In this document: in pieces, positions 1,364 to 55,203 of the stretch
How positions within the stretch are numbered: position 1 is the stretch's first letter
Layout of the letters: each line of letters opens with the position of its first letter
Virus record (IMG/VR): IMGVR_UViG_2721755676_000001
Reading direction: 5' to 3' (one strand)
Origin: a virus
Taxonomy: Duplodnaviria; Heunggongvirae; Uroviricota; Caudoviricetes
Length of the DNA stretch: 64,000 nt
The notes under the pieces: model-generated
Told to the model about the DNA's origin: nothing
What the model saw: only the letters and a program-made list of their open reading frames with translations
Database searches by the model: none
Position numbers and translations under genes: made by a program

Positions 1364-1416
1364 AAATTGTTTTCTATCTTTTCTTATTTGTGAAAATAAC
1401 CACAACTAGAAAACAA
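1364..1416 (+). promoter_or_regulatory. class I promoter/operator unit
   Basis: TTGTTTTCT half-site, TGtGAAAAT extended -10-like (1389-1397), AGAAAACAA half-site 10 nt downstream; same architecture and near-identical sequence to units at 4982-5046 and 8915-8955. Confidence 0.45.
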
Positions 1417-1427
1417 CGGAGTTAAGA

Positions 1428-1475
1428 ATGTCTAGTATTTCCGAAGCTCATATGTTCGCCGCTGGCGCTCGGTGA
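1428..1475 (+). other. 15-codon micro-ORF (MSSISEAHMFAAGAR) between class I promoter and terminator
   Basis: ATG with GGAG 7 nt upstream; stops after 15 codons; may be a short transcript or remnant of a truncated early gene. Confidence 0.25.
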
Positions 1476-1572
1476 TGCTGCCAACTTACTGATTTAGTGT
1501 ATGATGGTGTTTTTGAGGTGCTCCAGTGGCTTCTGTTTCTATCAGCTGTCCCTCCTGTTCAGCTACTGACGG

Positions 1573-1605
1573 GGTGGTGCGTAACGGCAAAAGCACCACC
1601 TTTTT
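1573..1605 (+). terminator. intrinsic terminator, plus-strand only (GGTGGTGC..GCACCACC + TTTTT)
   Basis: 8-bp GC-rich stem followed by T5; ends 1 nt before the mrp stop codon. Confidence 0.55.
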
Positions 1606-1606
1606 A

Positions 1607-2707
1607 TCACACTGCGCGGAATGCGATTTCGCCAGGTATTACTTCACCTTGCCAATACATTTGGGCAGCAACGCGATCTGCGAGGTCACGATAAATAGCC
1701 GTAAATTCACTATCTGGACGACTAATAACGGTTGGTGTTCCGTTATCCAGATCTTCACGAAGAGAGATATGAAGTGGCATTTGGCCTAACAACTGCGTGT
1801 TGTATTTCTCGGCCAGTTTCTGTGCGCCACCGGTGCCAAAAATTGGCTCGTGATGACCGCAGTTACTGCAAATATGCACACTCATGTTTTCAACGATACC
1901 CAGTACCGGCACTTCGACTTTTTCGAACATCACAATGCCTTTCTTCGCATCGATCAGCGCGATGTCTTGCGGCGTAGTTACCACAACCGCACCAGTTACA
2001 GGAATGTTCTGCGCCAGCGTCAATTGAATATCACCAGTGCCCGGTGGCATATCGAGAACGAGATAGTCCAGATCAGGCCACAGTGTTTCCTGCAACATCT
2101 GCATCAGCGCCTTGCTGGCCATCGGTCCACGCCACACCATTGCATTGTCGTCGGTGACCAGATAACCAATAGAGTTGGTTGCCAGGCCATGAGACATGAT
2201 AGGTGCCATGTGAGTACCGTCCGGTGAGGTTGGACGTTGGTTTTCCGCGCCCAGCATGGTTGGAATTGATGGACCATAGATATCGGCATCCAAAATACCA
2301 ACTTTCGCACCTTCAGCAGCCAACGCCAGTGCCAGGTTTACCGCCGTGGAGGATTTACCCACGCCGCCCTTGCCTGAGCTGACGGCGATAATGTTCTTAA
2401 CGCCATTAATGCCTGGTTGGTTTTTGACGCGCTTAAGCGTGGCAATGTTGTACGACAGCTTCCAGTCAATAGCCTTTGCGCCAGTGATACGGAGCAGATC
2501 ACCACTACATTGCTCTTTCAGGTCTTCAAAAGGCTTATTCCACACGAAAGGCATGATTAGTTCGACATGCAGTGTGTCATCCATCAACGCAACATGGTGT
2601 AACGCTTTAAGCGTAGTCAGGTTGTGTTTCAGGGTTGGGTGCTGAAAATTAGCCAGCGTACCGGCTACCATTGCTCTCAGGGCATCCGGCGATTTGGACT
2701 CGCTCAT
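1607..2707 (-). CDS. apbC: iron-sulfur cluster carrier ATPase Mrp/ApbC
   Basis: 366 aa; P-loop [11 protein letters not shown]-terminal CSNCGHH; near-identical to enterobacterial Mrp as recalled. Confidence 0.95.
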
Positions 2708-2864
2708 CCCGTCTCCTTTATTTTAATTTGCGCAATTGTCGCCTTGTAGTGTACTCCAGCTACGACATTTAATCATTTATGAGAAATGCTGTTATCACAT
2801 GGCAGACATAAGGCCATTTTGTTACTATCAAGCCCCTTTTCACTACAAAGAAGTAATGCCTACT

Positions 2865-4898
2865 ATGACCCAAGTCGCGAAGAAAATTCTGGTGACGTGC
2901 GCGCTGCCGTACGCTAACGGCTCAATCCACCTCGGCCATATGCTGGAGCACATCCAGGCTGATGTCTGGGTTCGTTACCAGCGAATGCGCGGCCACGAGG
3001 TTAATTTCATCTGTGCCGACGATGCCCACGGTACGCCAATCATGCTGAAAGCACAGCAGCTTGGTATCACACCGGAACAGATGATTGGCGAAATGAGTCA
3101 GGAACATCAGACTGATTTCGCAGGCTTTAACATCAGCTATGACAACTATCACTCGACGCACAGCGAAGAGAACCGTCAGTTGTCCGAGCTTATCTATACT
3201 CGCCTGAAAGAGAACGGTTTTATTAAAAACCGCACCATCTCTCAGCTGTACGACCCGGAAAAAGGCATGTTCCTGCCGGACCGTTTTGTAAAAGGCACAT
3301 GCCCGAAATGTAAAGCGCCGGATCAATACGGCGATAACTGTGAAGTCTGCGGCGCGACATACAGCCCGACGGAACTGATCGAGCCGAAATCAGTGGTTTC
3401 TGGCGCTACACCGGTAATGCGTGATTCCGAACACTTCTTCTTTGATCTGCCTTCTTTCAGCGAAATGTTGCAGGCATGGACCCGCAGCGGTGCGTTGCAG
3501 GAGCAGGTGGCAAACAAAATGCAGGAGTGGTTTGAATCTGGCCTGCAACAGTGGGATATCTCCCGTGACGCACCTTACTTCGGTTTTGAAATTCCGAACG
3601 CACCGGGCAAATACTTCTACGTCTGGCTGGACGCGCCGATTGGCTACATGGGTTCCTTCAAGAATCTGTGCGACAAACGCGGCGACACTACCAGCTTCGA
3701 CGAATACTGGAAGAAAGACTCCACCGCCGAGCTGTACCACTTCATCGGCAAAGATATCGTTTACTTCCACAGCCTGTTCTGGCCTGCCATGCTGGAAGGC
3801 AGCAACTTCCGCAAGCCGACCAACCTGTTTGTTCACGGCTATGTGACGGTGAACGGCGCGAAGATGTCCAAGTCTCGCGGCACCTTTATTAAAGCCAGCA
3901 CCTGGCTGAATCATTTTGACGCCGACAGCCTGCGTTACTACTACACTGCGAAACTCTCTTCGCGCATTGATGATATCGATCTCAACCTGGAAGATTTCGT
4001 TCAGCGTGTGAATGCCGATATCGTTAACAAAGTGGTTAACCTGGCCTCCCGTAATGCAGGCTTTATCAACAAGCGTTTTGACGGCGTGCTGGCAAGCGAA
4101 CTGGCTGACCCGCAACTGTACAAAACCTTTACTGATGCCGCTGAAGTGATTGGCGAAGCATGGGAAAGCCGCGAATTTGGCAAAGCTATCCGTGAAATCA
4201 TGGCACTGGCTGACCTGGCTAACCGCTATGTTGATGAACAGGCTCCGTGGGTGGTGGCAAAGCAGGAAGGACGCGATGCCGATCTGCAGGCGATTTGCTC
4301 TATGGGCATTAACCTGTTCCGCGTGCTGATGACGTACCTGAAACCGGTACTGCCGAAACTGACTGAACGTGCAGAAGCATTCCTGAATACAGAACTGACC
4401 TGGGATGGTATCCAGCAACCGCTGCTGGGCCATAAAGTGAATCCGTTCAAGGCACTGTATAACCGCATCGATATGAAGCAGGTTGAAGCACTGGTGGAAG
4501 CATCCAAAGAAGAAGTGAAAGCCACAGCCGCACCGGTAACTGGCCCACTGGCTGACGACCCGATTCAGGAAACTATCACCTTTGACGACTTCGCCAAAGT
4601 TGACCTGCGCGTGGCGCTGATTGAAAACGCAGAGTTTGTAGAAGGTTCTGACAAACTGCTTCGCCTGACGCTGGATCTCGGTGGTGAAAAGCGTAATGTC
4701 TTCTCAGGCATCCGTTCCGCTTATCCAGATCCACAGGCACTGATTGGTCGTCACACCATTATGGTGGCTAACCTGGCACCACGTAAAATGCGCTTCGGTA
4801 TCTCTGAAGGCATGGTGATGGCTGCTGGCCCCGGCGGGAAAGATATCTTCCTGTTAAGCCCGGATGCTGGTGCTAAACCTGGCCACCAGGTTAAGTAA
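2865..4898 (+). CDS. metG: methionyl-tRNA synthetase
   Basis: 677 aa from the ATG at 2865 ([29 protein letters not shown] motif, KMSKS, zinc knuckle CPKC..C..C, C-terminal tRNA-binding domain); divergent from mrp as in E. coli-type chromosomes. Confidence 0.95.
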
Positions 4899-4920
4899 TT
4901 AAACAACCTCTCTTCGCAAT

Positions 4921-4946
4921 GCCCGGCAACACGCCGGGCATTTTCA
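4921..4946 (+). terminator. intrinsic terminator downstream of metG
   Basis: GCCCGGC aacac GCCGGGC followed by ATTTTCAT. Confidence 0.7.
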
Positions 4947-4981
4947 TATAGACACAACCCCTTCTGACTTTAACAAACTCT

Positions 4982-5046
4982 AAAACAATTTGTTTTCTAC
5001 CTTTTGTTGATTGAGATAATAAGTCATATAAGAAAACAAATTGTTT
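4982..5046 (+). promoter_or_regulatory. class I promoter/operator unit (two palindromes flanking an extended -10)
   Basis: AAAACAATTTGTTTT (4982-4996), tTGaGATAAT (5011-5020), AGAAAACAAATTGTTT (5031-5046) directly before SD AGGAG. Confidence 0.5.
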
Positions 5047-5051
5047 AGGAG

Positions 5052-5300
5052 ATGAAGATGTTTGGAACAGCAAAAGAAATCATCGAGAAACTGAAAAACT
5101 ATCCAGAAGACGAACCCTTACTCATGGTTATGTGGCACAAAGAAGATATTGCTGAAGTAAGGACAGATCTCACTGATGAACAATGCGTACAGGTGATGCA
5201 AAAAATCAGACAATGCCATAACGCTGATGTCGGCGTTAATTGGGAGGTTATATCAACTACGGCGAATGAGTTGTTTCCGAACGGGGTGGTAAAATGCTGA
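5052..5300 (+). CDS. hypothetical small protein (82 aa; start may be the ATG at 5058)
   Basis: ORF immediately downstream of a class I unit and SD. Confidence 0.5.
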   Translation: MKMFGTAKEIIEKLKNYPEDEPLLMVMWHKEDIAEVRTDLTDEQCVQVMQKIRQCHNADVGVNWEVISTTANELFPNGVVKC

Positions 5301-5594
5301 AACTCACCAAATTGTATAAGACGACAGTTAGTAGCCCTACCCTCGTTACACAGCATGACTCTGAGTGTCTACCAAATATCTGTTTCGAGCACCATACAAT
5401 CTCGGACTCAATTGGGTACAGAAACGGAGTATGGGGGAGTCAGGGGAGGGAAGAAAAGCTGCGTGATTACGGTGTCACATAGCAAACCATCAAGAACATT
5501 CGAAAGGTGCTCGATGTAGGATTTGATGCGGTACAATTCCACCCTGACGCTGAAATAGACGATGGTCTGGAAAATTGGAAATTGTGAGGGATAA

Positions 5595-5993
5595 ATGAAA
5601 TATGCACCATTGGCACTAATATTTTTTGTGCTTTCTGCTAATGCCACGCCAGTTGAAGAGCCTAACACTATCGTGTACCCACGATGCATGAAAATAGATC
5701 CGGAAACACACAAGCAATTACCTGGTTACAATATTGTTATGGATATAGGGAATAAATTTAAAATCGTTTCCCCAAATGGGAATTCGGTGATATCCATCTC
5801 GCTTGCCCAAAGTGAAAAAGATAGGAACATGTTCGACGCCTCAGTCGGCGATGTTTACTTCTCTCGTTACCATGTTCAACCTGATGGGAACTTTCTATAC
5901 TCAGCCTGGAGTGAAAAGGCGAAAGTTACAGTGCTGTGTAATGGTAAAAGCGGTGAGCGGCATTACGTTGACCCTATTCATTTCGAGAACTGA
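5595..5993 (+). CDS. hypothetical secreted protein (132 aa)
   Basis: N-terminal signal-peptide-like segment MKYAPLALIFFVLSANA; SD GAGGGA upstream. Confidence 0.55.
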   Translation: MKYAPLALIFFVLSANATPVEEPNTIVYPRCMKIDPETHKQLPGYNIVMDIGNKFKIVSPNGNSVISISLAQSEKDRNMFDASVGDVYFSRYHVQPDGNFLYSAWSEKAKVTVLCNGKSGERHYVDPIHFEN

Positions 5994-6122
5994 CTACACA
6001 AGTAAACAAATCAATCAGTTGATAATGGCGGTCACAATTTGATTCTTTTCTATAAGAATCCGTTGATCGCCACTACTCTTCTTCCATACCCGCAATCACA
6101 TCCTTAAATATCAATAAGTTAT

Positions 6123-6150
6123 AGTTGTTTATACAATCAAGAAAACAACT
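6123..6150 (+). promoter_or_regulatory. class I-type unit with split palindrome around a TACAAT -10-like hexamer
   Basis: AGTTGTTT-aTACAAT-ca-AGAAAACAACT. Confidence 0.35.
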
Positions 6151-6860
6151 GAATAACAGATCAACGAAACATCAACGCTTTCACCCGATTTGGTCTAAAA
6201 AATTGACGTTTTCACACATCACTGCTTATACCCGTAACTCTACGCAGCAGACAGCGCCACAGCGTCCAATTTTCACCACAGACGACCCAACACACTACCA
6301 ACAAAAACACACGCTCAAAATCGCTCCCGTTGCGTTACACAACCATATAAACAACTTATTTTCAGGCATAACAAAACAACTAAATAACACAAATGCCATT
6401 TCCAAAAACAACCAACCTCTTTATGGCAGGCTACCGAAAAGACCCACCTCTTCTCCCCAGGCTACCGGACAACCAACCTAACTTTCACAGGCAATCCGAA
6501 AACATTCATACGCGCGATACCCACGACACGCCATTCCCCAAACAGCGAAGAACACCAGAATCACTGAAACCCCAACGAAGCCTGTAACCGCAAGGTTTCT
6601 CTCAATCCCAAAAGACACGAAACACAACAATCACGGGAAATGCCATTACCCAATACACGAATAACTACAAAAGCCCTTCACGCACTCCAGACAAACAACT
6701 CAAACACAATAACGAAAGGAATCGCCCACCTGCCATTACTCCATACACGGAGAAGAACAATCACCAAAACGACGAGAACACCCCATAGAAGAACCACCGC
6801 AAAACGAACGAAACCACATACACCGACAGAGAGAACAACACACCCAATTCACCAACAGAA
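6150..6860. other. A+C-rich (G/T-depleted) non-coding tract with degenerate internal repeats
   Basis: A+C about 75% on the plus strand (45% A, 32% C in 6601-6660); repeated TGCCATTnCnCnATACACG (6642, 6731); ORFs here are low-complexity artefacts. Confidence 0.6.
6416..6510. repeat. three tandem ~31-bp repeats with core CAGGCTACCG
   Basis: Cores at about 6427, 6458, 6488; homologous array at 9549-9650. Confidence 0.6.
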
Positions 6861-6976
6861 ATAGTTGCCGTATAGAACATTCTGGAAGGAGTGAGCATTA
6901 ACGCCTATAGAGAGGTTGAGACAGATAAAACACAACATGTATAGCGAAGAAGCCAGGTATGTATAAGTGGGGAGGG

Positions 6977-7000
6977 AAGGAGGGGTGTCGCCTCCTTTTT
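6977..7000 (+). terminator. possible intrinsic terminator (AAGGAGG..CCTCCTT + TTT)
   Basis: 7-bp stem with 7-nt loop and short T-run; would end a transcript from the 6130 promoter. Confidence 0.35.
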
Positions 7001-7063
7001 CGTATTTATTCAACTCCTGATTTTATCCCCCGTAACACCCCTACGGTCAGCCTTCGGTCCATA

Positions 7064-7198
7064 CAGGGAAAAGGTTGCATCCCGCTACAGAAACGGCTGG
7101 GTTGCCTTCGGGGAACGGCTGGAGGTTTTCAGGGAAACGGTCGAGTTGCCTGTGTGGATTTCGGGAAAAGGCTCGATGCCGGTTCAGGAACGGCGGCG
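7064..7198. repeat. six direct repeats of GGGAAACGGCT-like core, 21-32 bp period (iteron-like)
   Basis: Copies at 7064, 7088, 7109, 7130, 7162, 7185; related array at 10247-10326. Confidence 0.65.
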
Positions 7199-7507
7199 TA
7201 CCGGCATAGCGAGAGGGAGAGTTGCGGCTACCCACCTGTAATGTGCGGGAAGAAGAGAGGCGCTCACGTAGGCGGACTTACTTACCGCTGGATTCCCTCT
7301 GAATGCCCAGCTACAGCGTAATTGTGCCAGACAGCCAACGGGTCACAATCGATTTCAGTAGGTTTTTGGGGAGAGGATTACTCTGCCACCAGCCACTTTC
7401 GGCCACTAAATCAGAATAATGTAAAAAGTGTACTCGGTACTGAACCTGAAAACTCACTGCCAAAACCACATTCACCGGAATAAAATCCTTTTTCGCCTGT
7501 GCGTTAT

Positions 7508-7542
7508 TGCGATAATAACACCATCAAGAAAACATGTTGTTT
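7508..7542 (+). promoter_or_regulatory. class I promoter/operator unit
   Basis: tTGcGATAAT (7507-7516), 10 nt spacer, AGAAAACATGTTGTTT (7527-7542), then SD AAGGA. Confidence 0.45.
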
Positions 7543-7554
7543 AAGGATTGCTTT

Positions 7555-7884: not shown

Positions 7885-7990
7885 CCCCAACCAAAGCCAG
7901 CATTGCTGGCTTAATTTCTCTATAGCCGCAGGGAAGAACCTGCATATCGCTCATGCGCCTGATCAATATGCTTTGTAGCCGTTTTCTTAC

Positions 7991-8026
7991 TGGTATTATT
8001 TACGCCATTGAGAAAACAAGTTGTTT
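7991..8026 (+). promoter_or_regulatory. class I promoter/operator unit
   Basis: TGgTATTAT -10-like, then AGAAAACAAGTTGTTT (8011-8026), SD GGAG. Confidence 0.4.
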
Positions 8027-8037
8027 ACGGAGTTGTG

Positions 8038-8909: not shown

Positions 8910-8914
8910 ATGCC

Positions 8915-8955
8915 CGATAACAATTTGTTTTCTGCCTTATCTGATTTGTGAAAAT
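8915..8955 (+). promoter_or_regulatory. class I promoter/operator unit
   Basis: AACAATTTGTTTTCT plus TGtGAAAAT; near-identical to the unit at 1364-1397. Confidence 0.45.
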
Positions 8956-8989
8956 GATTTCACTGAAGCAACTTAATAAGGAAACCATC

Positions 8990-9661: not shown

Positions 9662-9693
9662 GATAATTAACACCAACAAGAAAACAATTTGTT
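9662..9693 (+). promoter_or_regulatory. class I promoter/operator unit
   Basis: GATAAT, about 10 nt spacer, AAGAAAACAATTTGTT, SD AAGGA. Confidence 0.4.
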
Positions 9694-9714
9694 ATTTACG
9701 ATAAGGAATTAATC

Positions 9715-12254: not shown

Positions 12255-12773
12255 TTAAAACGGAAGGATTCGTTCAACCCAATCGAAGAAAATAAGTATT
12301 TTTCTACCGTCTTCCAACTTAAGTGTGACTAGACAGGCGTCAACGCCATCTGACGTTCCCTCAATTTCGCGACCGTCTGCCATGTAGACCCTTATAGATT
12401 TGCCGTTTTGGTAAGCCTGACGACATATCTTAAAAAAGTCACGACGTGATGGCTGATTAACCATCTGTTCATTGTTTAGCGTTAGTCGACCTGTGAATGA
12501 AGTGTCAACCTCTTCTATGCCCGACTCAATTGTGCTAATGCGCTCAAGAGGGAGCCTTATACGATTTGTGTTGCTAAGCGGATCTGGTGTGAGGTTCAGC
12601 TTATTTCTTGCGCTCAATAGCCCGTAGACATACATGCAAAATACTTGGCCGTCTTCGAGAGTGACTCTTACAGGAAATTTTGCACTCCGCCAGAAGAGCA
12701 AGGTGCGCTCAGCATGTTCGTAGTCTCGCGGCCAGACTTCAGCCGGTATGCCGTAGGTGATGTCTTTAACCAT
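12255..12773 (-). CDS. hypothetical protein (172 aa), AT-rich
   Basis: Isolated minus-strand ORF with downstream hairpin AACCGG..CCGGTT. Confidence 0.5.
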   Translation of the reverse strand: MVKDITYGIPAEVWPRDYEHAERTLLFWRSAKFPVRVTLEDGQVFCMYVYGLLSARNKLNLTPDPLSNTNRIRLPLERISTIESGIEEVDTSFTGRLTLNNEQMVNQPSRRDFFKICRQAYQNGKSIRVYMADGREIEGTSDGVDACLVTLKLEDGRKILIFFDWVERILPF

Positions 12774-14693: not shown

Positions 14694-14972
14694 TTACGGC
14701 AACCTGCTCAGTATTTCCTCTAGATCTTTTTTTGTCATATTGGAGTTCTCATAGATGCGCATGATTTTCTCACGCGTCTTAGCGGAAACCCCAACGGCAG
14801 ATGTGACTTTGTCAAATTCAGCCATAGTCATCGTCTCCAGAATGGCATTGATAACTTCAGCCTTAGACATCTTGATTTTTTTCTCTTTGAGTTTTATTTG
14901 AAATTTTCCAAGTTTTTCATTGGCCTTATCAGACAATGCCACTTGGCAATAAGTTGTTTTCTTTTCGCTCAT
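14694..14972 (-). CDS. small putative ribbon-helix-helix DNA-binding protein (92 aa)
   Basis: N-terminal beta-strand-helix pattern (TYCQVALSDKANEKLGKF); 3-nt gap to the helicase stop. Confidence 0.45.
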   Translation of the reverse strand: MSEKKTTYCQVALSDKANEKLGKFQIKLKEKKIKMSKAEVINAILETMTMAEFDKVTSAVGVSAKTREKIMRIYENSNMTKKDLEEILSRLP

Positions 14973-16534: not shown

Positions 16535-16616
16535 AAACCTCTTTCCTTAGTGCCTTTTGTATGTTATTTGGCTATTATAATAAGTAAGTGATTACTTAAT
16601 GGATTGTAGCAATAAA

Positions 16617-17297
16617 ATGGATGTAAAAATCACGATTTTGCAGGTTGATGTTGCCAACCTTCGCCCGAATACCTGGAACACCAATTCGGTTGGTGCGCAG
16701 AATTTCGAAAAACTGAAAGGTTCTATCGAAAAATTGGGCTTTTTTAAGCCAATTTTGGCTCGTGAACTTGAAGATGGATTTTTTGAAATCCTCGGCGGCG
16801 AACATCGCTGGCGTGCTGCTATTGAGCAAGGGATTTCAACGGTTCCGGTGCTTTCTGTGGGCAAAATTAGCGATGTCGTAGCTAAACAGATGTCACTGGT
16901 GGACAACGAGCGATACGGTGAAGACGACCAAATCGCATTGCAACGCTTCATTGAAGAAATTCAGTCAGAACTTGACTATCAACTGTCTGAAATCGCTCCG
17001 TATGACGACGAAATCTCGATGGTTTTAGCAAAAGAGGCGGCAATCGACCTTGAAGCACTGGAGGCGTTGTCTCGTGGTAGTGATGAGCCTGTCGATACCG
17101 ACAAACGAGAGAAAACCGAACGTGTGGGTGCGGAACATCAGACCATGCGCTTCAAAGTAACTTTCGATGCGTCAGATCGTGTTGCAGAAACCATAAAAAA
17201 CATCATCAAAGAGCAGGCTATTAACACCGGTAATGAAATGGAGAACGCTGGTGAGGCTCTGGTGTGGCTGGTCGACTACTACAAGGAGCGTATGTAA
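16617..17297 (+). CDS. ParB/Srx-fold (ParB-like nuclease domain) protein 1
   Basis: GGEHRWRAA matches the ParB box II GERRxRAA pattern; class II palindrome TAAGTAAGTGATTACTTA overlaps the alternative 16599 start. Confidence 0.65.
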   Translation: MDVKITILQVDVANLRPNTWNTNSVGAQNFEKLKGSIEKLGFFKPILARELEDGFFEILGGEHRWRAAIEQGISTVPVLSVGKISDVVAKQMSLVDNERYGEDDQIALQRFIEEIQSELDYQLSEIAPYDDEISMVLAKEAAIDLEALEALSRGSDEPVDTDKREKTERVGAEHQTMRFKVTFDASDRVAETIKNIIKEQAINTGNEMENAGEALVWLVDYYKERM

Positions 17298-17965
17298 TGA
17301 CCAAAAAGTTTGAAATCGTATATCGCGACCCGGCAGATCTTATTCCCTATGAGATGAATGCCAAAAAGCATGATGAACAGCAGATCCGAGATCTAGCTGC
17401 AGCCATTAAAAAGCGCGGATTTGACCAGCCAATTACGGTCGATAAGAACGACGTAATTATTACTGGCCACGGCCGCCGTGAGGCTGCAATTTTTGCTGGA
17501 CTTGAGCGCGTACCGGTTATTGTTCGCGATGATCTCAGTGATGACGAGGTTCGTGCGAAGCGCCTTGAAGATAACCGACTTGCCAGCATTGATTACGATG
17601 CAATTAAGCTACAGAAAGAGCTTGAGTCGCTTGTTCTGGACGATATCGAGGTTTTCGGCTTTGAAGAGCGTGAGTTGAATGTTCTCGTTGGCAGTATGAC
17701 AGAAGAAATGGACACCGACTCGCTAGTTATCGATCTTGGCGAAGAAACTAAACGACAGAAGGATGAACACACCGAGATCAGTCGTGAAGTTGCAGCGGAA
17801 GAAGTACGTGTTGTCGACGTATTGGGCTTTAAAACGCTCCCTGCTGGCTCTGCCATTGTTGTTGGTGATTTGCTTGCCCACATGGAAGAAATGACGGGAG
17901 AAAGCGGGGTAGACGCATTTGTGGCATATGCGGAGAAGATCTCTTCCGGGGAGATGGCTGCATGA
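17297..17965 (+). CDS. ParB/Srx-fold (ParB-like nuclease domain) protein 2
   Basis: GHGRREAA motif in the N-terminal domain; TAATG stop-start overlap with the preceding gene. Confidence 0.65.
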   Translation: MTKKFEIVYRDPADLIPYEMNAKKHDEQQIRDLAAAIKKRGFDQPITVDKNDVIITGHGRREAAIFAGLERVPVIVRDDLSDDEVRAKRLEDNRLASIDYDAIKLQKELESLVLDDIEVFGFEERELNVLVGSMTEEMDTDSLVIDLGEETKRQKDEHTEISREVAAEEVRVVDVLGFKTLPAGSAIVVGDLLAHMEEMTGESGVDAFVAYAEKISSGEMAA

Positions 17966-19523: not shown

Positions 19524-19790
19524 ATGACGTTAACCGATAAACAAAAGGACATCATCAAAACGCTCAATCTCGGTTATGAGCGAGGTCATCTACTTGACCT
19601 GGACGAATTGCTTGAAGTTTTGCCGTACAAGACAACCAAGCAAAGTATCCAGTTCTCAATTCGCGCTCTGATAAAAAAGGGGCTGGTGGAGAAAGGGCAT
19701 ACGCGCCAACGCAGTGACAATCGCTATCACCGCCGAACTCTTGGGTTAACCACTTTAGGTCGAGCCAAAGCGAAGTTACTGGTGATGTAA
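19524..19790 (+). CDS. small winged-helix DNA-binding protein (88 aa)
   Basis: Helix-turn-wing pattern (IRALIKKGLVEK), basic C-terminus. Confidence 0.4.
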   Translation: MTLTDKQKDIIKTLNLGYERGHLLDLDELLEVLPYKTTKQSIQFSIRALIKKGLVEKGHTRQRSDNRYHRRTLGLTTLGRAKAKLLVM

Positions 19791-19814: not shown

Positions 19815-19869
19815 CCTGCTTCTGTATATATAAATAATAAGTAACTTATTAAATATATACGGAAGCAGG
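19815..19869. repeat. 55-bp near-perfect palindrome (copy A)
   Basis: CCTGCTTCTGTATATATAAATAATAAGT|AACTTATTAAATATATACGGAAGCAGG; second copy at 52829-52881; outer inverted repeat GGTCTGG/CCAGACC. Confidence 0.7.
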
Positions 19870-19905
19870 CTTCGTAAGACATGCCAGACCTAATTAAACA
19901 CCCCA

Positions 19906-19947
19906 GAAAACAAGTTGGTTAGCAGATGCAGTAAACAAGTTGTTTTA
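19906..19947 (+). promoter_or_regulatory. two class I operator palindromes upstream of terS
   Basis: AGAAAACAAGTTGGTT and TAAACAAGTTGTTTTA, followed by hairpin AGAGCGC..GCGCTCT and SD. Confidence 0.45.
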
Positions 19948-19985
19948 GAGCGCATGGACGCGCTCTGTGTGTTTTAGAGGGATCT

Positions 19986-46957: not shown

Positions 46958-47565
46958 TGTACGGAAGCAAGATATATCGATCTGACGGGAAGGTCTGGAT
47001 GTCTCCTTCTTTGTCTCCTATCGTTTTTCAGAGAAAGCAGGTTGTTTCTTTGTCCGGCGGGACAGAGTTTAACACCAAAATATCTCCAGATCGTTCACCG
47101 ATTATTTTTGTTGCCTATTCGAAAGCTGTTTCATTAATAGCCAACAGAATAGTGCGTAACAACCAGGTGATTTACAGTTTCGGAGGTCGGGGTAGCGACT
47201 CTAGTGCCACGATATACGTATTTTCGAAAGGTATAGCCAAAAAAGAAACTTGGGGCATGAGTTTTTTCAATGCACAAGGGGGGGAAATCTATAATACGGC
47301 AAATATCCCACTTTCATTTACCTTTCTTAATAATACGGAGTGGAACAGCTCTGGAGGGCATGTTTTTGATTACCCTCCAGCGATAATCCCAACATATGCG
47401 AATGTGTTCGCTGTTCCAGTACCGGGCGGAGCCATGACAATGGTTTATGGATATGCGGCGTATGGAAATACTGTTAGCTCGATATTCGTAAACCAACTTA
47501 ATGGCGGCCATAGTTTTAGCGTAAATGGCAGAGTACCGGTAATAAATAGAAATCTGTATAACTGA
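46957..47565 (+). CDS. hypothetical Gly/Ser-rich protein (202 aa)
   Basis: TAATG overlap with the preceding gene. Confidence 0.4.
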   Translation: MYGSKIYRSDGKVWMSPSLSPIVFQRKQVVSLSGGTEFNTKISPDRSPIIFVAYSKAVSLIANRIVRNNQVIYSFGGRGSDSSATIYVFSKGIAKKETWGMSFFNAQGGEIYNTANIPLSFTFLNNTEWNSSGGHVFDYPPAIIPTYANVFAVPVPGGAMTMVYGYAAYGNTVSSIFVNQLNGGHSFSVNGRVPVINRNLYN

Positions 47566-48211: not shown

Positions 48212-48224
48212 CAGGAGATCAAGG

Positions 48225-48917: not shown

Positions 48918-48918
48918 T

Positions 48919-49170: not shown

Positions 49171-49318
49171 GACGCAGGCTCCAGGCGTGCTATTCTGCGA
49201 TGCTGCAAATCCTATCTATGTGAGTAGAGAGGATTTTATGACTGAGGAAACGGAGCGACAGTTGCTTATCCACAATACGATAGGTGAAAGGCTGTGTGAG
49301 TGGGGGCACCTGAACTGA
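49091..49318 (+). CDS. o-spanin (Rz1-like lipoprotein), overlapping +1 frame
   Basis: Start inside the i-spanin gene; signal peptide with lipobox FIASC. Confidence 0.5.
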   Translation: MKRLMKCGKKMPLVFIASCLINGCVIKTQAPGVLFCDAANPIYVSREDFMTEETERQLLIHNTIGERLCEWGHLN

Positions 49319-49542
49319 GTCGATGATTGATGAGTGGTCTCAGTTTACCTTTTATCCTAAAGATGGCATCTTCACTCATATACACGCCTGTTCACTCAAG
49401 CTCATGTTGAATCATTTAGTAATTTGATGTAGATTTATTAGGCATCCACGTAAGTGGGCACATACAGGCTACGCATCCTCGTAGCCTTCAACCCCGAGAG
49501 GGGTGCCGCAATGACACTTGTGTTAACGGCTAAGGTGGATAT

Positions 49543-49962
49543 ATGCTAAATTATCATGACAATACGCGTTCTATGCAGACGATCCGCACCAATACTGCGG
49601 TCATCGACAGCTTTCCTATGCGTATTCACAACAGTGAAGACGCAGTAGAAGTGCGACGTATGTTGTGCCGTGAATCAGCTAACCGCCAGCACTTCATCGT
49701 CACTTTTAAGAGCGATGTGGCGCGTGCCGAAAAGATCTCTAATTCTACGTCACTGGTTAAACCGTTGGCCGAGGTTGTCGCTAACGGTAAACGAACCTCT
49801 TTTGTTTTAGATGTTGCTGAACAATATCCTGACTTGAAGTGTTTAGATCGTGATATTTCTTCACGAATCAAACAAGTTGTAGAGTCTTTTATGAAGAAAT
49901 TCTGTAAAATCGATGATATGGAACCATCAACGGCACAGAATACTTCATGGCACCATCTCTAA
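49543..49962 (+). CDS. hypothetical protein (139 aa)
   Basis: ORF after a 220-bp hairpin-rich intergenic region. Confidence 0.45.
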   Translation: MLNYHDNTRSMQTIRTNTAVIDSFPMRIHNSEDAVEVRRMLCRESANRQHFIVTFKSDVARAEKISNSTSLVKPLAEVVANGKRTSFVLDVAEQYPDLKCLDRDISSRIKQVVESFMKKFCKIDDMEPSTAQNTSWHHL

Positions 49963-50720
49963 TTGGTCAGGCGAACAGATTAATCCCTGAAATAGAAGAC
50001 TACAGCAAGGTCTTGTCTGAAATGCCGAGAGCGACGAGAATTATCGCTCTCGGTGAGTTCTATTTTATCTCCCGAGGTTTCGATCTAATTCGATTTACCG
50101 AATACGAGCTTGTTGATTCGGCCTATGAACGCTGTATTGTTGGCGAGTGTCTTGAGTCATGTGATCCTGATTACCAAGAGCAGGAAGTTAAGCGACTCAA
50201 ACGTGCTGGTTACACACCTCTTGAGATAGGAGCAGAAATTGAATCCTACAAGTTGCATGTGGGGCAGCCAGTCCAAACAGTCTTCCGCGTGGCCTACTGC
50301 GAGTTTCCAATCAAGGATAAATCTGGAGTAAAAGTCAGCGCCAAGCAGATTAGAGGGGTTTTTACTCATGCTGATTATATGGGATTAGGCATCGCAAGTT
50401 TTGCTTACCTTTATCTCGTAGATAAGTATCAGTACTTGGTTTGCGATACGTTACAGACGGTAAAAGGCGCAACTCTTTGGGCTGTGAGTATGCGCAAACA
50501 TGGACTGGTCGAAATTTACGATACGAAGAACGAAAATTTTATAGAGGAATTGGGTGAGGATGCCTGTGGCGTAAGTGGTTTTATTCCGTGGGATATCGGT
50601 AAGTCTGACGGAGGCCAGATGCGAAGACGTGAAGAGTGGGGGACTAATAAAATCAATCTCACCCCAGGTGCTTGTACTCATATAGTGAACATTCTGACTA
50701 AACGATCTATGAATCAATAA
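49947..50720 (+). CDS. hypothetical protein (257 aa)
   Basis: Overlaps the preceding gene end; followed by a strong terminator. Confidence 0.45.
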   Translation: MAPSLIGQANRLIPEIEDYSKVLSEMPRATRIIALGEFYFISRGFDLIRFTEYELVDSAYERCIVGECLESCDPDYQEQEVKRLKRAGYTPLEIGAEIESYKLHVGQPVQTVFRVAYCEFPIKDKSGVKVSAKQIRGVFTHADYMGLGIASFAYLYLVDKYQYLVCDTLQTVKGATLWAVSMRKHGLVEIYDTKNENFIEELGEDACGVSGFIPWDIGKSDGGQMRRREEWGTNKINLTPGACTHIVNILTKRSMNQ

Positions 50721-50741
50721 ACCCGCTACGGCGGGTTTTTT
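50721..50741 (+). terminator. intrinsic terminator
   Basis: CCCGC tacg GCGGG followed by T6. Confidence 0.7.
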
Positions 50742-50810
50742 GTTATTAAGCCCCCCCTATGTACCTATCATTAAACCTTTACACCGCAGCCGTAGGCATT
50801 TAGGCTATAT

Positions 50811-50834
50811 CACATATAAGAAAACAAGTTGTTT
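50811..50834 (+). promoter_or_regulatory. class I operator upstream of parA (CATATAAGAAAACAAGTTGTTT)
   Basis: Same TATAAGAAAACAA junction as at 5025-5046. Confidence 0.45.
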
Positions 50835-50869
50835 CAGACGATAATTATATACGCAAAGGGAACTCTCCA

Positions 50870-51538
50870 ATGACCAAGATCTTTGTGGTTGGCGGCACAA
50901 AGGGCGGGCCTGGCAAATCCACCGTTGCCCAGCAAATTGCCGTTTGCCTGAAAGTCAAAAAGAAGAAGAAGGTTTATATTACCGATATAGATATTCAGCG
51001 CACGACAACGAGCTGGTGTGAAGACCGTCGACAGAACGAAGACCTTGAGCTGATTCCTTTTGCATACGTTCAGGATGACATCATTAAGCACCTAAAATCG
51101 CTTCAGGGTAGAGCTGAGTTTGTAGTGGTAGATGCTGGTGGCTTCGACTCCGAAATTCAGCGACAAGCGATGCTGATGGCTGACGTTATCATTATCCCGC
51201 TGCGTCCTAAGCGTCGTGATTTGAAATCTTTACGTGACATCGATCCTATTATCGACAATGTTCGCAATGTAAACGATAAAGTGAAGGTCCGCGCGGTCAT
51301 GAACCAGTGCCCGGCTTTGCCATCACAAGTGTCTCGCATTCTGGCGGCTAAAGAGATTGTTGAGACGTTTGGAATCGAGTCTGCGCCAGTCAATCTATAT
51401 AACCGCAACGTCTATGATGATGCGGAAGAGTCTGGTCGTTCTATCTTTGAAATGACCGGTAGCGAGCGCGACAAAAAGGCGGAAGCCGAGTTTGAAGAAT
51501 TTGTAGATTATCTGTTGAGTCTGGAGGAAGAAGAATAA
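50870..51538 (+). CDS. ParA-family partition ATPase (small, Type Ib-like)
   Basis: Deviant Walker A GGTKGGPGKST; 222 aa with no N-terminal HTH; acidic tail. Confidence 0.85.
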   Translation: MTKIFVVGGTKGGPGKSTVAQQIAVCLKVKKKKKVYITDIDIQRTTTSWCEDRRQNEDLELIPFAYVQDDIIKHLKSLQGRAEFVVVDAGGFDSEIQRQAMLMADVIIIPLRPKRRDLKSLRDIDPIIDNVRNVNDKVKVRAVMNQCPALPSQVSRILAAKEIVETFGIESAPVNLYNRNVYDDAEESGRSIFEMTGSERDKKAEAEFEEFVDYLLSLEEEE

Positions 51539-51897
51539 TGTCCATGAAAATGGGTGACCTAGCAAAGCGCAAAGAGCCTGATGCACCGGCTAAGAACACA
51601 ACTCCTTTGCGCCAACCAGTCAGACCACAGGGACGCCCGACTCGTGGCAAAGAGAAAATTAAAAGCCGCACAATGTCACTGGAGGACGAATACTTCGAAC
51701 TGCTGGAGATGATGAAGTTCATCCCTCGCTTCGAGAAGTTCACTCGTTCTGACGTGATTCGAGCAGCCATTTTCCATCTGGCAGAGAAGTCACCGCAGGA
51801 AATCGAGGACATCGTGAAATTGAATGAGGCGATCACCGCTGCCGATGTCACGATGCGTACCGATGAAATCAAACGAGAGTTGATGAAGAAAGGTTAA
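51538..51897 (+). CDS. putative ribbon-helix-helix centromere-binding partner (ParG-like)
   Basis: ATGA overlap with parA; basic disordered N-terminus and RHH-like KSRTMSLEDEYFELLEMM segment. Confidence 0.55.
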   Translation: MSMKMGDLAKRKEPDAPAKNTTPLRQPVRPQGRPTRGKEKIKSRTMSLEDEYFELLEMMKFIPRFEKFTRSDVIRAAIFHLAEKSPQEIEDIVKLNEAITAADVTMRTDEIKRELMKKG

Positions 51898-51902
51898 AAA
51901 TC

Positions 51903-51933
51903 ATGCATTGGCGCGTACATTGCGCCAATGCAT
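51903..51933 (-). terminator. terminator hairpin (12-bp perfect stem) between convergent genes
   Basis: ATGCATTGGCGC gtacatt GCGCCAATGCAT; T-run only on the minus-strand side. Confidence 0.6.
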
Positions 51934-51949
51934 AACTACAGTGTCAGCT

Positions 51950-52717
51950 TTATGCCGCGCTAACACTATGTTCAGTCCTAACCACCCCAACCTTCACAAA
52001 AGGGCTACCGTAGCTTGGTGGCTTCTTGATTAATTTGCCTACATACAGTTTTCTAATATGCTCATCGGCTATTCTGCCAACAAATTCATAACGTTTTGTG
52101 TCGGGGCCAAGAGCTATATCCCTTGTAAAGTACTGCTGAGAACCGGCTTTGACCCAGCATTCAATCTGATAAACTTCCATTATCAGCCCACCATATGTAG
52201 CGTAGGCATATTTGAGATTCTCGTCTCTTGGAACCTTTGCCCATACGCCACGCGTAGCTTCATATAATGCCAGAGCGGACATTCCTGACTTGTAGGTGCT
52301 GTTTAGCAGGAAGGCAAGACCGGCGTGCTCAGGAGCAATTTCAGTTTCCTCTTGCAGCACTAAGTGATGGTAGGCGTCCAGTGATATTCTGCCCATCATG
52401 GAACCACTTCCTCGTACCTTATTCGTAAGCTCTCCGACCCCCATAAGGTCGATGCATGTCGCCTCAACAAGTTTGGCTGTGGTTTCATCCATACCATGAC
52501 GAAGTATATCTATGCCTAATTTTTTATTAGCCAAAAGTTCTTTGATCCGCATGGATTTGGGAGAGTCATCGGGATACTTGATGTGATCGAGACAACGAGT
52601 CGATTTGCCTTTTCCTATGTAAAACGGTCTTTTCATCTTGTCTTCTGTATCATAGAGACAGTAAACATAGTATTTAGCCTTATCCAATGATCTCGCGTAT
52701 ACCGATAAATCGTCCAT
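51950..52717 (-). CDS. GIY-YIG nuclease-domain protein (255 aa)
   Basis: N-terminal YYVYCLYD...RPFYIGKGK motif; C-terminal ~150 aa of unknown type. Confidence 0.6.
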   Translation of the reverse strand: MDDLSVYARSLDKAKYYVYCLYDTEDKMKRPFYIGKGKSTRCLDHIKYPDDSPKSMRIKELLANKKLGIDILRHGMDETTAKLVEATCIDLMGVGELTNKVRGSGSMMGRISLDAYHHLVLQEETEIAPEHAGLAFLLNSTYKSGMSALALYEATRGVWAKVPRDENLKYAYATYGGLIMEVYQIECWVKAGSQQYFTRDIALGPDTKRYEFVGRIADEHIRKLYVGKLIKKPPSYGSPFVKVGVVRTEHSVSAA

Positions 52718-52828
52718 TATTGCATCTCTTTGCTACTGACTAATGCGTTCTATTTTACACATAAGTTTTTAATCAATTTAACAGGCTCAAAGTGTAGAGC
52801 TTCTGGGCGTCTAAGACGACAAGTTATG

Positions 52829-52881
52829 CCTGCTTCTGTATATAAATAATAAGTAACTTATTAAATATATACGGAAGCAGG
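52829..52881. repeat. 53-bp near-perfect palindrome (copy B)
   Basis: Same sequence as 19815-19869 minus 2 bp; lies in the divergent region before the replication module. Confidence 0.7.
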
Positions 52882-52988
52882 TCTTTTAAAAGACACCACC
52901 AGAACAACTCCCTTCCGTTTCCACTTCCAAAAACTGCCACCAGTCGCTATCATCCGCTCATTGTGATAAGTAAGTAACTACCAACTAG

Positions 52989-53738
52989 GTGAGCCACATG
53001 AGCCAAATCTTTTTCGATACCATCGACAACGACCAGTACGACTTCATGACAGAGTGGAATACCGCTGTTATGGACAAGTGGGTCGCTGAAAACATTGGTT
53101 TGTCGCGCTGTAAAGACGAGGCTGAACTCTTCGAGACGAAGTGGTTTGATTACCGCGACATGCATCCTCTCATGGCCACCTGTCTTTTTACGGAGGCATA
53201 CAAACGTCAGTACTCAAATATCATGCTGACGCACGGTCGCGAACACTTTGAAACAGCTCCGTTCACCACCGGGTTAAAACGCCTGCCTTATCAGGAGTTG
53301 TCGACTGCCAATAAAACGTCGCTATGGAAAGCACGCCAGTTTGCGGATCGCTATTGCTGCTCATACGACTACTTTATCTCCACCGTTCTTTCCGCAGCTG
53401 CACGACGGCTGTGGGACAAGCTGCCGCGCCCACAGCATTTATGGCAGCCAGAACTGATTGAGATATTTGAAGAGAAATTAGCCAGACGCGCAACAACCCG
53501 TCTGGATGACTCTCTGGTTAGCTTTAAGCATATGGGAGACATGCAGTTCAACCCGATTCAGGAAAGCTATTTTGAGTGGATTCTGGAGCGTTTGCGCACC
53601 ATCCCTCGCAGCAAGCGCATACGCGCAATTTTCTCCGCTATCTGGCTAATGGAAATCGTTCCAGAGCGCCTTATTTCCGCCCACTTTCCAGAAGAACTGG
53701 AAGAAGCACGGCGGTTTATTGATCCCCTATCTAATTAA
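52989..53738 (+). CDS. hypothetical replication-associated protein (start GTG 52989 or ATG 52998)
   Basis: First gene of the replication operon; class II element TGATAAGTAAGTAA upstream; no NTP-binding motif. Confidence 0.45.
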   Translation: MSHMSQIFFDTIDNDQYDFMTEWNTAVMDKWVAENIGLSRCKDEAELFETKWFDYRDMHPLMATCLFTEAYKRQYSNIMLTHGREHFETAPFTTGLKRLPYQELSTANKTSLWKARQFADRYCCSYDYFISTVLSAAARRLWDKLPRPQHLWQPELIEIFEEKLARRATTRLDDSLVSFKHMGDMQFNPIQESYFEWILERLRTIPRSKRIRAIFSAIWLMEIVPERLISAHFPEELEEARRFIDPLSN

Positions 53739-53746
53739 CTAATACT

Positions 53747-53762
53747 AGAAAACAATTTGTTT
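53747..53762 (+). promoter_or_regulatory. class I operator (AGAAAACAATTTGTTT) upstream of the helicase gene
   Basis: Perfect palindrome 19 nt before the ATG. Confidence 0.45.
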
Positions 53763-53781
53763 AAAAAACAAAGGAAAGCAC

Positions 53782-55122
53782 ATGACCGAACTTTGCCATA
53801 CAGGACGCGGGCTGTCCGAAGAGTTTGATGAAGATTTCCAGAACAGACTGACGGCATATTTTTGTCGTGATCACGAGTTTCTTACTCGTGCGGGAGATCT
53901 GGTTGTGCCTAGCCAATTTGCCAATGCGGCCAATGCCATATTGGTTAATATGGTTTCGGGCTATTACCGTATGTACAAGAGCGCGCCCTCTTCATCTGCA
54001 ATTCTGGATATGCTTAAGCGTGCGAAACGCGATAAGACTATCCGTGAGGAACTATTCGCCGATGTTGTTGCTGCGTTTAAGCGCATTCTTGCAGAAAAAT
54101 TGTCCGATACCTCGTACATGGTTGACCAGGTATCAACCTTCGCAAAAAGTGTAGCGTTTGATGATGCTCTGATTAAGGCTGCTGAACTGAAAGAGAAAGG
54201 CGACTTTCACGGGGCGATGGCAATCATGGCCAAGGTTCAGCAGATTGGATCGAACGAAGCGACCGGAATCTATGACTACTACACCTCCGCAAGTGAGCGA
54301 TTGAAAGCGCGTGAATATGAGGCTTCAGAGGAGTATGTACCAAACAGTATTACAACTGGACTCCCTCTTCTCGATAGGTTGCTGTACCAAAAAGGCTGGG
54401 CAAAGCGCGAAATGGTGCTCTTCATGGGGTTCGCTAAATCCGGTAAATCGACCGCAATGGGTGAGTTTTCCATAAACGCAACACTTGCTGGCTACAATGT
54501 TCTGTATCTCTCGCTGGAGGTTCACACCACCATTTTATCCGACCGTTTTGATGCAAGATTGTCGGAGACGGAAATGTCCAAGCTGGTGGAACGGCGCGAT
54601 GAGGTTCATCGTAAGTTGGCAGAGTTGGGAGCCACGAAGGGGATTGGTAGTTTGTGGGTGGTTGAGCGTCCGTCAGGAAGTATGTCACCGGCAGATCTGG
54701 ACCGTATGCTTAACAGCATGAAAGCCAATGGCATGGTGCCTGACATGGTTGTTGTCGACTACGCAGATTTGATGCGTGCCAGTTATGATCTTCGTGATGA
54801 TCGCGCCAACATTCGTAGTATCTACACCGATTTACGTGCTCTTTATGACAAGCATAACGTTGCTGGGATCACGGCATCGCAGACAAACCGTGAAGGTGGC
54901 GCGTCAGAAGTTGCCACAATGATGCACGCTGCCGACAACATCGAAAAAGTACGTATTGCTGACCTGGTAATAACGATCAACAAAACCGAAGAAGAAGAAG
55001 CGAAAGGAGAGGCTCGTCTCTACTTTGCTGGTTCACGTAACCAGCAGGGAGGGATCAGCATTCGCGTTAAACAAAACCTCGAACAAATGCGCTTCATTGA
55101 GCGAATCTTAGACGTTACCTAA
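53782..55122 (+). CDS. DnaB-like replicative helicase
   Basis: RecA-type core: Walker A GFAKSGKST, Walker B VVVDYADLM, ITASQTNREG. Confidence 0.8.
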   Translation: MTELCHTGRGLSEEFDEDFQNRLTAYFCRDHEFLTRAGDLVVPSQFANAANAILVNMVSGYYRMYKSAPSSSAILDMLKRAKRDKTIREELFADVVAAFKRILAEKLSDTSYMVDQVSTFAKSVAFDDALIKAAELKEKGDFHGAMAIMAKVQQIGSNEATGIYDYYTSASERLKAREYEASEEYVPNSITTGLPLLDRLLYQKGWAKREMVLFMGFAKSGKSTAMGEFSINATLAGYNVLYLSLEVHTTILSDRFDARLSETEMSKLVERRDEVHRKLAELGATKGIGSLWVVERPSGSMSPADLDRMLNSMKANGMVPDMVVVDYADLMRASYDLRDDRANIRSIYTDLRALYDKHNVAGITASQTNREGGASEVATMMHAADNIEKVRIADLVITINKTEEEEAKGEARLYFAGSRNQQGGISIRVKQNLEQMRFIERILDVT

Positions 55123-55203
55123 AAAATAAGCGTGGAGAACACCTCCACGCTTGATTCATTGGTGAAACAACTTTTCTTTTGCCAAACCACAAAAGAAAAA
55201 CAC

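Follow-up and report, generated by a model that had tools for sequence, protein, structure and literature searches.

Omega of plasmid pSM19035 and ParG of TP228 bind DNA as small partners of small ParA ATPases and repress transcription as well, and KorB of the IncP plasmid RK2 is a partition protein of the ParB family as well as a global repressor acting at 12 dispersed 13-bp palindromes. In phage P1, operators scattered at promoters are used by C1 to hold off lytic functions including the replicative helicase gene, and N15 carries four SopB centromere palindromes among its phage genes, for which a link of partition with phage development has been suggested. FljA is known as the repressor of flagellin phase variation and reportedly blocks translation and speeds the decay of fliC mRNA; the leader of T7 gene 10 enhances translation. 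Here we analyze a palindromic motif that recurs at the promoters of a 64,000-nucleotide stretch of viral DNA (IMG/VR record IMGVR_UViG_2721755676_000001; the window, below). The window is an SSU5-like phage-plasmid that shares 94-98% identity across most of its length with the Escherichia phages PhiR41_1, CMS-2020a and Cyrano (about 96% for Cyrano, a plasmid-prophage of E. coli LF82) and about 80% identity, in parts, with Salmonella phage SSU5 and Klebsiella phage-plasmids. Gene names were taken over from the Cyrano record.

Motif enrichment and promoter anchoring

We could confirm that the motif is a real and strongly conserved cis-regulatory element. With up to two mismatches allowed, AGAAAACAANTTGTTT was matched 19 times at 14 loci of the window where 0.40 matches were expected, none of 100 shuffles contained as many, and the exact 9-mer of its left arm, AGAAAACAA, occurred 13 times against 0.98 expected. 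To avoid circularity, a weight matrix of 17 positions was built from SSU5 and Klebsiella pJN2-26 sites only; applied to the window it returned 16 matches of at least 16 bits at 13 loci (0.2 expected) and recovered all sites listed in the initial annotation of this DNA, each of whose coordinates indeed holds a motif copy. Two matches probably stand outside the system, one at 47032 (14 bits, inside a gene) and one at 14947 (in the first codons of a gene and not conserved in SSU5 or pJN2-26). A scan of viral contigs with the exact motif gave mostly single chance matches in unrelated contigs and was not used, and the motif was not described in the searchable literature (SSU5 combined with operator, promoter or lysogeny; the motif string itself).

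The core, AAACAA-N-TTGTTT, forms an exact 6+6 palindrome; the centres of its arms are separated by 7 bp, and the information content is about 24 bits. The flanks of 56 sites (window, rest of Cyrano, SSU5 and pJN2-26) were aligned and then re-registered on the motif, and the 37 forward sites from these four genomes are the basis of the position-wise conservation figures. By these figures the motif is polar, with the left arm AGAAAACAA conserved at 93-98% and the right arm TTGTTT at 85-98%, and copies consisting of the left arm alone are present at 1408 and 6140. Half-sites had originally been proposed at 1364-1416 and 6123-6150; the left-arm-only copies bear this out, and 1360-1375 is instead an inverted copy.

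Eight forward copies lie downstream of a -10 hexamer (1408, 5031, 7527, 8011, 9679, 19905 with 19930 behind it, 50819 and 53747) and stand at the head of early operons, of terS and parA, and of the helicase gene. Between the final T of the hexamer and the motif are 10-11 nt, and this T, at -11, is present in 98% of the forward sites. The extended -10, often with TG, that the initial annotation described was found at 1408, 5031, 7527 and 8011 (TGnGATAAT, TGnGAAAAT or TGGTATTAT) and not at 9679, 19905, 50819 and 53747, which lack the TG and of which the last three have weaker hexamers (CCTAAT/CTAATT, CTATAT and CTAATT). With this conserved last T, and with TG at four of the sites, the hexamers conform to the sigma-70 extended -10 type, those at 19905, 50819 and 53747 being weaker and without TG. 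From motif to ATG there are between 11 and 65 nt (35-65 nt at parA and terS), and the combination of a fixed spacing to the -10 with a variable distance to the ATG ties the motif to the promoter and not to the ribosome-binding site. As far as can be predicted from sequence, it would occupy about +4 to +20, within the first 20 or so transcribed bases. The conserved cassette reads, in order, CTTTnnCGCC-TTTTC, TGnGATAAT, AACACCAACA, AGAAAACAAnTTGTTTA, (A/C)GGAG and ATG. Among the aligned sites no copy was seen at an internal gene without a promoter. A generic promoter scan did not list the motif sites; it needs a -35 match and is unsuited to promoters that depend on the -10 alone.

Three further copies (4983-4998, 8918-8933 and 1360-1375) are inverted and precede the promoter, covering the -35 region, so the earlier statement that all copies fall between a -10 and a Shine-Dalgarno sequence (SD) holds for the eight forward copies and not for these. 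The distance from inverted to forward copy is 51 bp centre to centre at all three of these window promoters, the same arrangement recurs at the matching SSU5 and pJN2-26 promoters, and each of the two copies has its fully conserved arm turned towards the promoter. The inverted -35 copies, the polarity of the motif and the candidate readers discussed below were not part of the initial annotation.

Enrichment extends to the relatives, with 6 and 18 matches in SSU5 against 0.08 and 0.16 expected (24 against about 0.24 overall), 16 in pJN2-26 (0.12 expected), seven in pMT1 of Y. pestis (0.17 expected) and, with up to three mismatches, 28 in a distant Klebsiella lineage (1.9 expected) whose regulators are 33-35% identical; all three Cyrano segments are enriched as well. 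The 13 loci of the window compare with 15-25 copies per genome in the SSU5, Klebsiella and Yersinia relatives, and the sites across these genomes are both orthologous (terS, parA, helicase, CobT and RNR-beta) and paralogous. At the parA promoter of the distant Klebsiella lineage the arrangement is TTGACC-17-TAACAT-10-AGAAAACATCTTGTTTTC. The full palindrome is absent from a syntenic but more distant Moellerella element, in which early promoters consist of an extended -10, a spacer of 7-10 nt and an A-rich left arm (AGAAAACAATTTCATT, AGAAAAACAAC).

Lysogen silence, the proposed operator and its rivals

Expression in the lysogenic state was taken from a published LF82 transcriptome that lists every Cyrano gene (median 9.8; PMC9928086 S1 Table). 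The first genes behind motif copies are at background, namely terS (7.1), CYRAN_101 (7.5), CYRAN_105 (12.8), CYRAN_106 (12.2), CYRAN_108 (5.7), CYRAN_110 (6.7), the helicase gene (21), CYRAN_47 (7.8), CYRAN_58 (5.7), CYRAN_85 (7.0), CYRAN_87 (7.1) and CYRAN_93 (6.3). The parA operon (50, 89 and 55) is the sole motif-headed operon that is on, a pattern expected of an autoregulated repressor operon. The silence of four near-consensus TG-extended promoters in the lysogen argues for repression rather than a missing activator; of the repressor or activator originally envisaged, the former is the better fit, also with a site at about +4 to +20. The motif most likely marks genes that are silenced together during plasmid life.

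We lean towards the reading that the motif is the DNA operator of an element-encoded global repressor, embedded in a promoter-leader cassette shared by SSU5-like phage-plasmids. Each cassette would be a sigma-70 promoter relying on its (often TG-extended) -10 hexamer. A protein encoded by the element and made in the plasmid (lysogenic) state would bind the double-stranded sites, as a dimer or a pair of dimers on the two 6-bp arms, and block RNA polymerase at some 15-25 promoters at once, such that early, replication and late terS genes would stay silent until the repressor is removed. The exact palindrome, the copy at a fixed helical distance over the -35, the anchoring to the -10, the lack of promoter-less copies and the silence in the lysogen together favour a double-stranded operator whose repressor would bind as a dimer or a paired dimer. 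The original proposal of a single regulon with one site near +10 is strengthened by the -10 anchoring, the conservation across genera and the joint silence in the lysogen; as to mechanism, we infer the transcription starts, the action at the DNA level, the repression and the identity of the reader.

Our leading candidate for that reader, put forward tentatively, is the protein encoded at 51538-51897, which would serve both as DNA-binding partner of ParA and as global repressor, comparable to omega of pSM19035 and KorB of RK2. Its gene lies directly downstream of that of the small Walker ParA, with a start codon that overlaps the parA stop; the ParA itself matches MipZ, AAA_31 and CbiA in Pfam, ParA_partition in NCBIfam (1.9e-33, below the model cut-off) and a ParA-like PHROG. 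At its N-terminus the candidate carries a conserved MGDLAK, and its sequence further shows a basic arm with GRP and a strand-helix-helix pattern. Identity reaches 98% with the SSU5 homologue and 90% or more in 735 of 796 plasmids, compared with 51-65% for the other candidates between the E. coli and Klebsiella lineages. In a lineage that keeps the motif at 55% overall identity of the protein, the putative base-reading segment PQGRPTRGK..IKSRTMS.EDE and the helix FTRSDVIRAAI are invariant, and the IKSRT.S.EDE strand is retained even at 32% identity in Moellerella, where parA is preceded, at about 100 bp, by a motif copy with two mismatches. Below threshold, the candidate matches aCcr1, which we take to be a ribbon-helix-helix family, and it has no detectable sequence similarity to omega or ParG. 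The parA promoter carries the motif in the window, SSU5 and the distant lineage alike, as do about ten other promoters. The homologue CYRAN_29 is made in the lysogen (89; PMC9928086). CYRAN_29 is annotated as a RelE/ParE toxin; position, basic arm and extreme conservation suggest a DNA-binding partner of ParA rather than a toxin.

Several observations weigh against a dimeric repressor at a DNA operator or against this reader. The motif is polar, with the AGA flank conserved on one side only, and left-arm-only copies exist, neither of which a symmetric dimer requires, and direct arrays of left arms occur in the distant Klebsiella lineage. Moellerella keeps the ParA-adjacent protein yet has no palindromic regulon, its early promoters carrying the A-rich left arm only, and it also lacks the FljA-like gene, which favours a role of the latter. 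Conversely, pMT1 keeps the motif without a homologue of 51538-51897, a pattern that probably reflects recent ancestry and is thus uninformative; in the co-occurrence comparison, hit H175 is merely a fragment truncated by an insertion sequence (IS). The large palindrome at 52829-52881 near the par operon could be the true centromere, and the lysogen expression data are those of Cyrano and not of this exact element.

The strongest rival, in our view still unlikely, places control at the level of RNA. The FljA-family protein encoded at 12255-12773 would bind the A-rich and U-rich leader element, block translation and speed decay, or, in a variant, pair the palindromic leaders with a small motif-bearing RNA such as the terS leader transcript of about 70 nt. 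The protein matches Pfam Flag1_repress over its full length (E 1.3e-68, residues 4-169 of 172) and has an RNA-binding fold insofar as a tandem Sm/Hfq-like fold is predicted for it. All 12 SSU5-like phage records contain the gene, six of them being from Klebsiella, as do 834 plasmids including 345 of Klebsiella and 62 of Yersinia, Y. pestis among them. To our knowledge the Klebsiella and Y. pestis hosts make no flagella, and for a core gene this would indicate a role internal to the element. FljA-type repressors have been described as acting after transcription (PMC2652032), and transcripts of the gene are present in Cyrano lysogens, with a value of 18 in overnight LB (lysogeny broth) and log2 values of 7-8 in the other conditions (PMC9928086). 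The motif, moreover, lies wholly within the predicted leader, is polar and always in sense orientation at promoters, includes left-arm-only copies, and loses its right arm in Moellerella where the FljA-like gene is missing as well. However, an exact 6+6 palindrome is unexpected for a single-stranded RNA site, the inverted -35 copies would fall outside the regulated mRNA, the anchor is the -10 hexamer and not the SD (at motif-to-ATG distances of 11-65 nt), and no copy was seen at an internal gene without a promoter. The leaders of fliC score negative with the motif matrix (-6.7 for the real E. coli sequence and -5.1 for a presumed Salmonella sequence), and the FljA-like protein is only 35% identical in a lineage whose motif is identical. 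That this protein with its two predicted Hfq-like domains is the master post-transcriptional silencer of the lytic programme, acting through one 16-nt element in some 20 leaders and perhaps annealing terS-leader RNA, seems to us a shade less likely than RNA-level control as such.

Lower still we rank a DNA operator with a different reader, that is the protein encoded at 14694-14972, CYRAN_45, a ParB-like protein (16599-17965) or a host factor. The same palindrome, paired sites and lysogen silence would be accounted for, and the invariance of the motif while the regulators are 33-35% identical would be in keeping with a highly conserved reader, perhaps a host factor, although we know of no host factor with this consensus. 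The protein at 14694-14972 has a strand-helix-helix pattern, is present in 789 plasmids and has a homologue expressed at 114 in the Cyrano lysogen (PMC9928086). It was downgraded, as its predicted base-reading residues vary (Y/Q/A, H/Q/Q, S/Q/K, S/H/K) at a constant motif and a homologue is also found in Moellerella, which lacks the palindrome. CYRAN_45, a helix-turn-helix (HTH) repressor encoded beside the integrase just outside the window, is expressed at 96 in the lysogen (PMC9928086) and was rejected since it is absent from SSU5 and has its own intergenic GGTAAGTGCTTACC in place of the motif. This perfect palindrome, accompanied by half-sites, lies between CYRAN_45 and the divergent CYRAN_46 in Cyrano (L002 42606-42619), beyond the right end of the window, and is probably a separate local switch. 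The two ParB-like genes are at background in the Cyrano lysogen (5.0 and 9.5; PMC9928086). Among 20 small proteins scanned neither a repressor family nor a C1 homologue was found, no search having been aimed at C1.

It is very unlikely that no dedicated regulator exists and that the motif is an initial transcribed sequence and leader optimized for promoter escape and translation and spread by duplication of the cassette. This explanation would draw on the conservation of the whole cassette (CTTTnnCGCC-TTTTC, TGnGATAAT, AACACCAACA) and not of the motif alone, on the unstructured leader, on Moellerella keeping just the A-rich left arm in the same position, and on a match of AGAAAACAATTTGTTTAA at 15 of 18 positions to AGAAATAATTTTGTTTAA of the T7 gene 10 leader (T7 sequence verified). 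Yet about 24 bits and an exact palindrome far exceed what an A/U-rich enhancer needs, the T7 leader reaches 11.8 of 28.9 bits and lacks the palindrome, the inverted -35 copies stay unexplained, the motif is 35-65 nt away from the ATG at parA and terS, and strong extended -10 promoters would be constitutive, whereas their genes are at lysogen background.

The conserved 5' stem-loop in the transcripts that the initial annotation offered as an alternative can be dismissed as highly improbable, since, complementary as the two arms are, a one-base spacer cannot make a loop, the leaders fold no better than shuffled sequence (minimum free energy -0.7 to -4.2 kcal/mol, z -1.3 to +0.5) and changes in the arms are uncompensated (e.g. 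TTGGTT, TTATTT, GTGTTT, GATGTT and ACATG). Rejected for single-copy leaders, pairing could occur solely between the two terS copies (z -2.2). An Rfam search of the window found three tRNAs only and nothing at the leaders.

Features of the window and their surroundings

Table 1. Motif sites, promoter elements and candidate reader genes in the window
Feature	Position	Strand	Details
Promoter cassette	1360..1416	+	inverted copy 1360-1375 (AGAAAACAATTTATTT on the - strand); extended -10 TGTGAAAAT 1389-1397; left-arm-only AGAAAACAA 1408-1416; SD CGGAG
Promoter cassette	4983..5046	+	inverted copy 4983-4998; extended -10 TGAGATAAT 5012-5020; 10-nt spacer; forward copy AGAAAACAAATTGTTT 5031-5046 (28.9 bits), then AGGAG, ATG 5058
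Left-arm-only copy AGAAAACAA	6140..6148	+	start of A+C-rich, G-poor stretch; promoter uncertain
Motif copy TGAAAATAAGTTGTTT	6349..6364	-	20.2 bits; orthologous to SSU5 and pJN2-26 sites
Promoter and motif	7508..7542	+	extended -10 TGCGATAAT, 10 nt, AGAAAACATGTTGTTT, AAGGA, ATG 7555
Promoter and motif	7991..8026	+	extended -10 TGGTATTAT, 11 nt, AGAAAACAAGTTGTTT, ACGGAG, ATG 8038
Promoter cassette	8918..8972	+	inverted copy 8918-8933; extended -10 TGTGAAAAT; degenerate forward GAAGCAAC at about 8965-8972
Promoter and motif	9662..9694	+	-10 GATAAT, 11 nt, AGAAAACAATTTGTTA; ATG 9715
Candidate reader 2, FljA-family (PF03614)	12255..12773	-	predicted tandem Sm/Hfq-like fold
Candidate reader 3, 92 amino acids, less likely	14694..14972	-	ribbon-helix-helix-like pattern; expressed in Cyrano lysogen
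Late terS leader	19889..19975	+	weak -10 CCTAAT/CTAATT; two copies 19905-19920, 19930-19945; GC hairpin 19946-19967, then TGTGTTTT (terminator-like); terS ATG 19986
parA promoter region	50805..50834	+	-10-like CTATAT, then AGAAAACAAGTTGTTT; ATG 50870, 35 nt past motif
ParA partition ATPase, small Walker-type	50870..51538	+	
Candidate reader 1, basic protein of 119 amino acids	51538..51897	+	homologue of CYRAN_29
Replicative-helicase promoter region	53731..53762	+	CTAATT, 10 nt, AGAAAACAATTTGTTT; ATG 53782

At the left end of the window, immediately 3' of the 1408 promoter, the left end of IS1 including the first InsA codons is found at 1473-1600. Compared with Cyrano, about 3.7 kb are gone at this remnant, comprising CYRAN_93 to 98 and with them a gene for a LexA-like S24 peptidase, and the 1408 promoter now serves only an open reading frame (ORF) of 15 codons, the IS1 remnant truncating the downstream ORF. 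Genes for a MinD/Mrp-like ATPase (1607-2707, minus strand) and a methionyl-tRNA synthetase (2736-4898) follow, and three tRNA genes are located at 60527-60770.

The left-arm-only copy at 6140 and the minus-strand copy at 6349-6364, conserved in SSU5 and pJN2-26, belong to a stretch of about 850 bp (6000-6870) that is rich in A+C and poor in G (GC skew -0.13, AT skew +0.18) and holds repeated AAACAAC units as well as several 30-nt direct repeats. ORFs annotated for this region in Cyrano have essentially zero reads, and the stretch may act as an origin or a decoy or give rise to a non-coding RNA.

In the terS leader, a hairpin with the sequence AGAGCGC-ATGGAC-GCGCTCT followed by TGTGTTTT (19946-19975) stands between the late promoter and the terS SD. 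Its stem is kept in SSU5 and pJN2-26 with differing loops, and a different stem occupies the same place in the distant Klebsiella lineage, an arrangement suggestive of antitermination or of a different control acting on the late operon through its leader. Winged-helix-like sequence patterns are seen in two small proteins, encoded at 19524-19790, directly upstream of the late promoter, and at 59097-59312; both are silent in the lysogen and may be lytic-phase activators.

A second repeated element, TTAAATATATACGGAAGCAGG, is present in three copies in the window where none is expected (19849-19869 and 52829-52881). One of them precedes the late promoter by about 40-60 bp, at the point where deposited phage genomes start; the other two, placed between the par region and the helicase operon, make up a palindrome whose arms measure 26 nt. 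Moellerella has a diverged counterpart at matching places. Possible roles of the element are those of a centromere, a pac site or a site for a late activator.

The sole exact AGAAAACAA outside regulatory sites is at 63237-63245, antisense within the homologue of CYRAN_43, whose mRNA would bear the complementary UUGUUUUCU. CYRAN_43 is by far the top Cyrano transcript in lysogens (7084 against the median of 9.8; PMC9928086 S1 Table), and the match may be due to chance.

Significance and comparison with known systems

SSU5-like phage-plasmids are common in E. coli, Klebsiella, Salmonella (pHCM2 of S. Typhi) and Yersinia pestis (pMT1), and about 800 plasmids in PLSDB carry genes discussed here. 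How these elements choose between plasmid life and lysis was not described in the searchable literature. The motif maps a silenced regulon that comprises early, replication, late terS and partition operons, together with two or three candidate readers. If the partner of ParA were the reader, a single protein would run both plasmid segregation and lytic silencing; if the FljA-like protein were, the whole phage programme would be held off at the RNA level. For the SSU5-like group either outcome would be new, and it could offer a way of inducing or curing these elements.

With omega and ParG the preferred DNA operator reading shares a small protein whose gene immediately follows that of a small Walker ParA, a site within the promoter of parA, the use of short sites that are inverted and, in the distant lineage, direct, with arm centres 7 bp apart, and the coordination of several operons by one protein. 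In contrast to the three operons of omega, about 20 targets including lytic, replication and late promoters would be controlled here, and the candidate has no detectable sequence similarity to omega or ParG. KorB resembles the proposed repressor in that copies of a 6-1-6 palindrome are scattered across the replicon, at promoters, with the par operon itself as one of the targets. It is, however, of the ParB/HTH family, whereas the candidate with its 119 amino acids is of another kind and the two ParB-like genes are silent in the lysogen, and most KorB sites are upstream of or far from promoters and not at +4 to +20. Like P1, the window represents a plasmid prophage with many operators at promoters across the genome; the operators of P1 are asymmetric 17-mers of unrelated sequence, while the motif is palindromic and fixed after the -10. 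The N15 system is likewise a phage-plasmid with partition-protein sites scattered among phage genes, but it has four sites and a ParB-type SopB, compared with 15-25 sites fixed within promoters. As for FljA and fliC, a member of the family is encoded in the window and its action would likewise be on a 5' leader, adjacent to the SD, yet fliC leaders lack the motif, the phage-plasmid context has neither fljB nor hin, and about 20 targets stand against one. The epsilon element UUAACUUUA of the T7 gene 10 leader is absent from the cassette leaders. The system cannot be assigned to any of those compared: no kinship in sequence or fold has emerged for the candidate reader, and the operator sequence is unrelated to theirs. 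What sets it apart is the fixed position of its motif, predicted at +4 to +20 in some 20 promoters.

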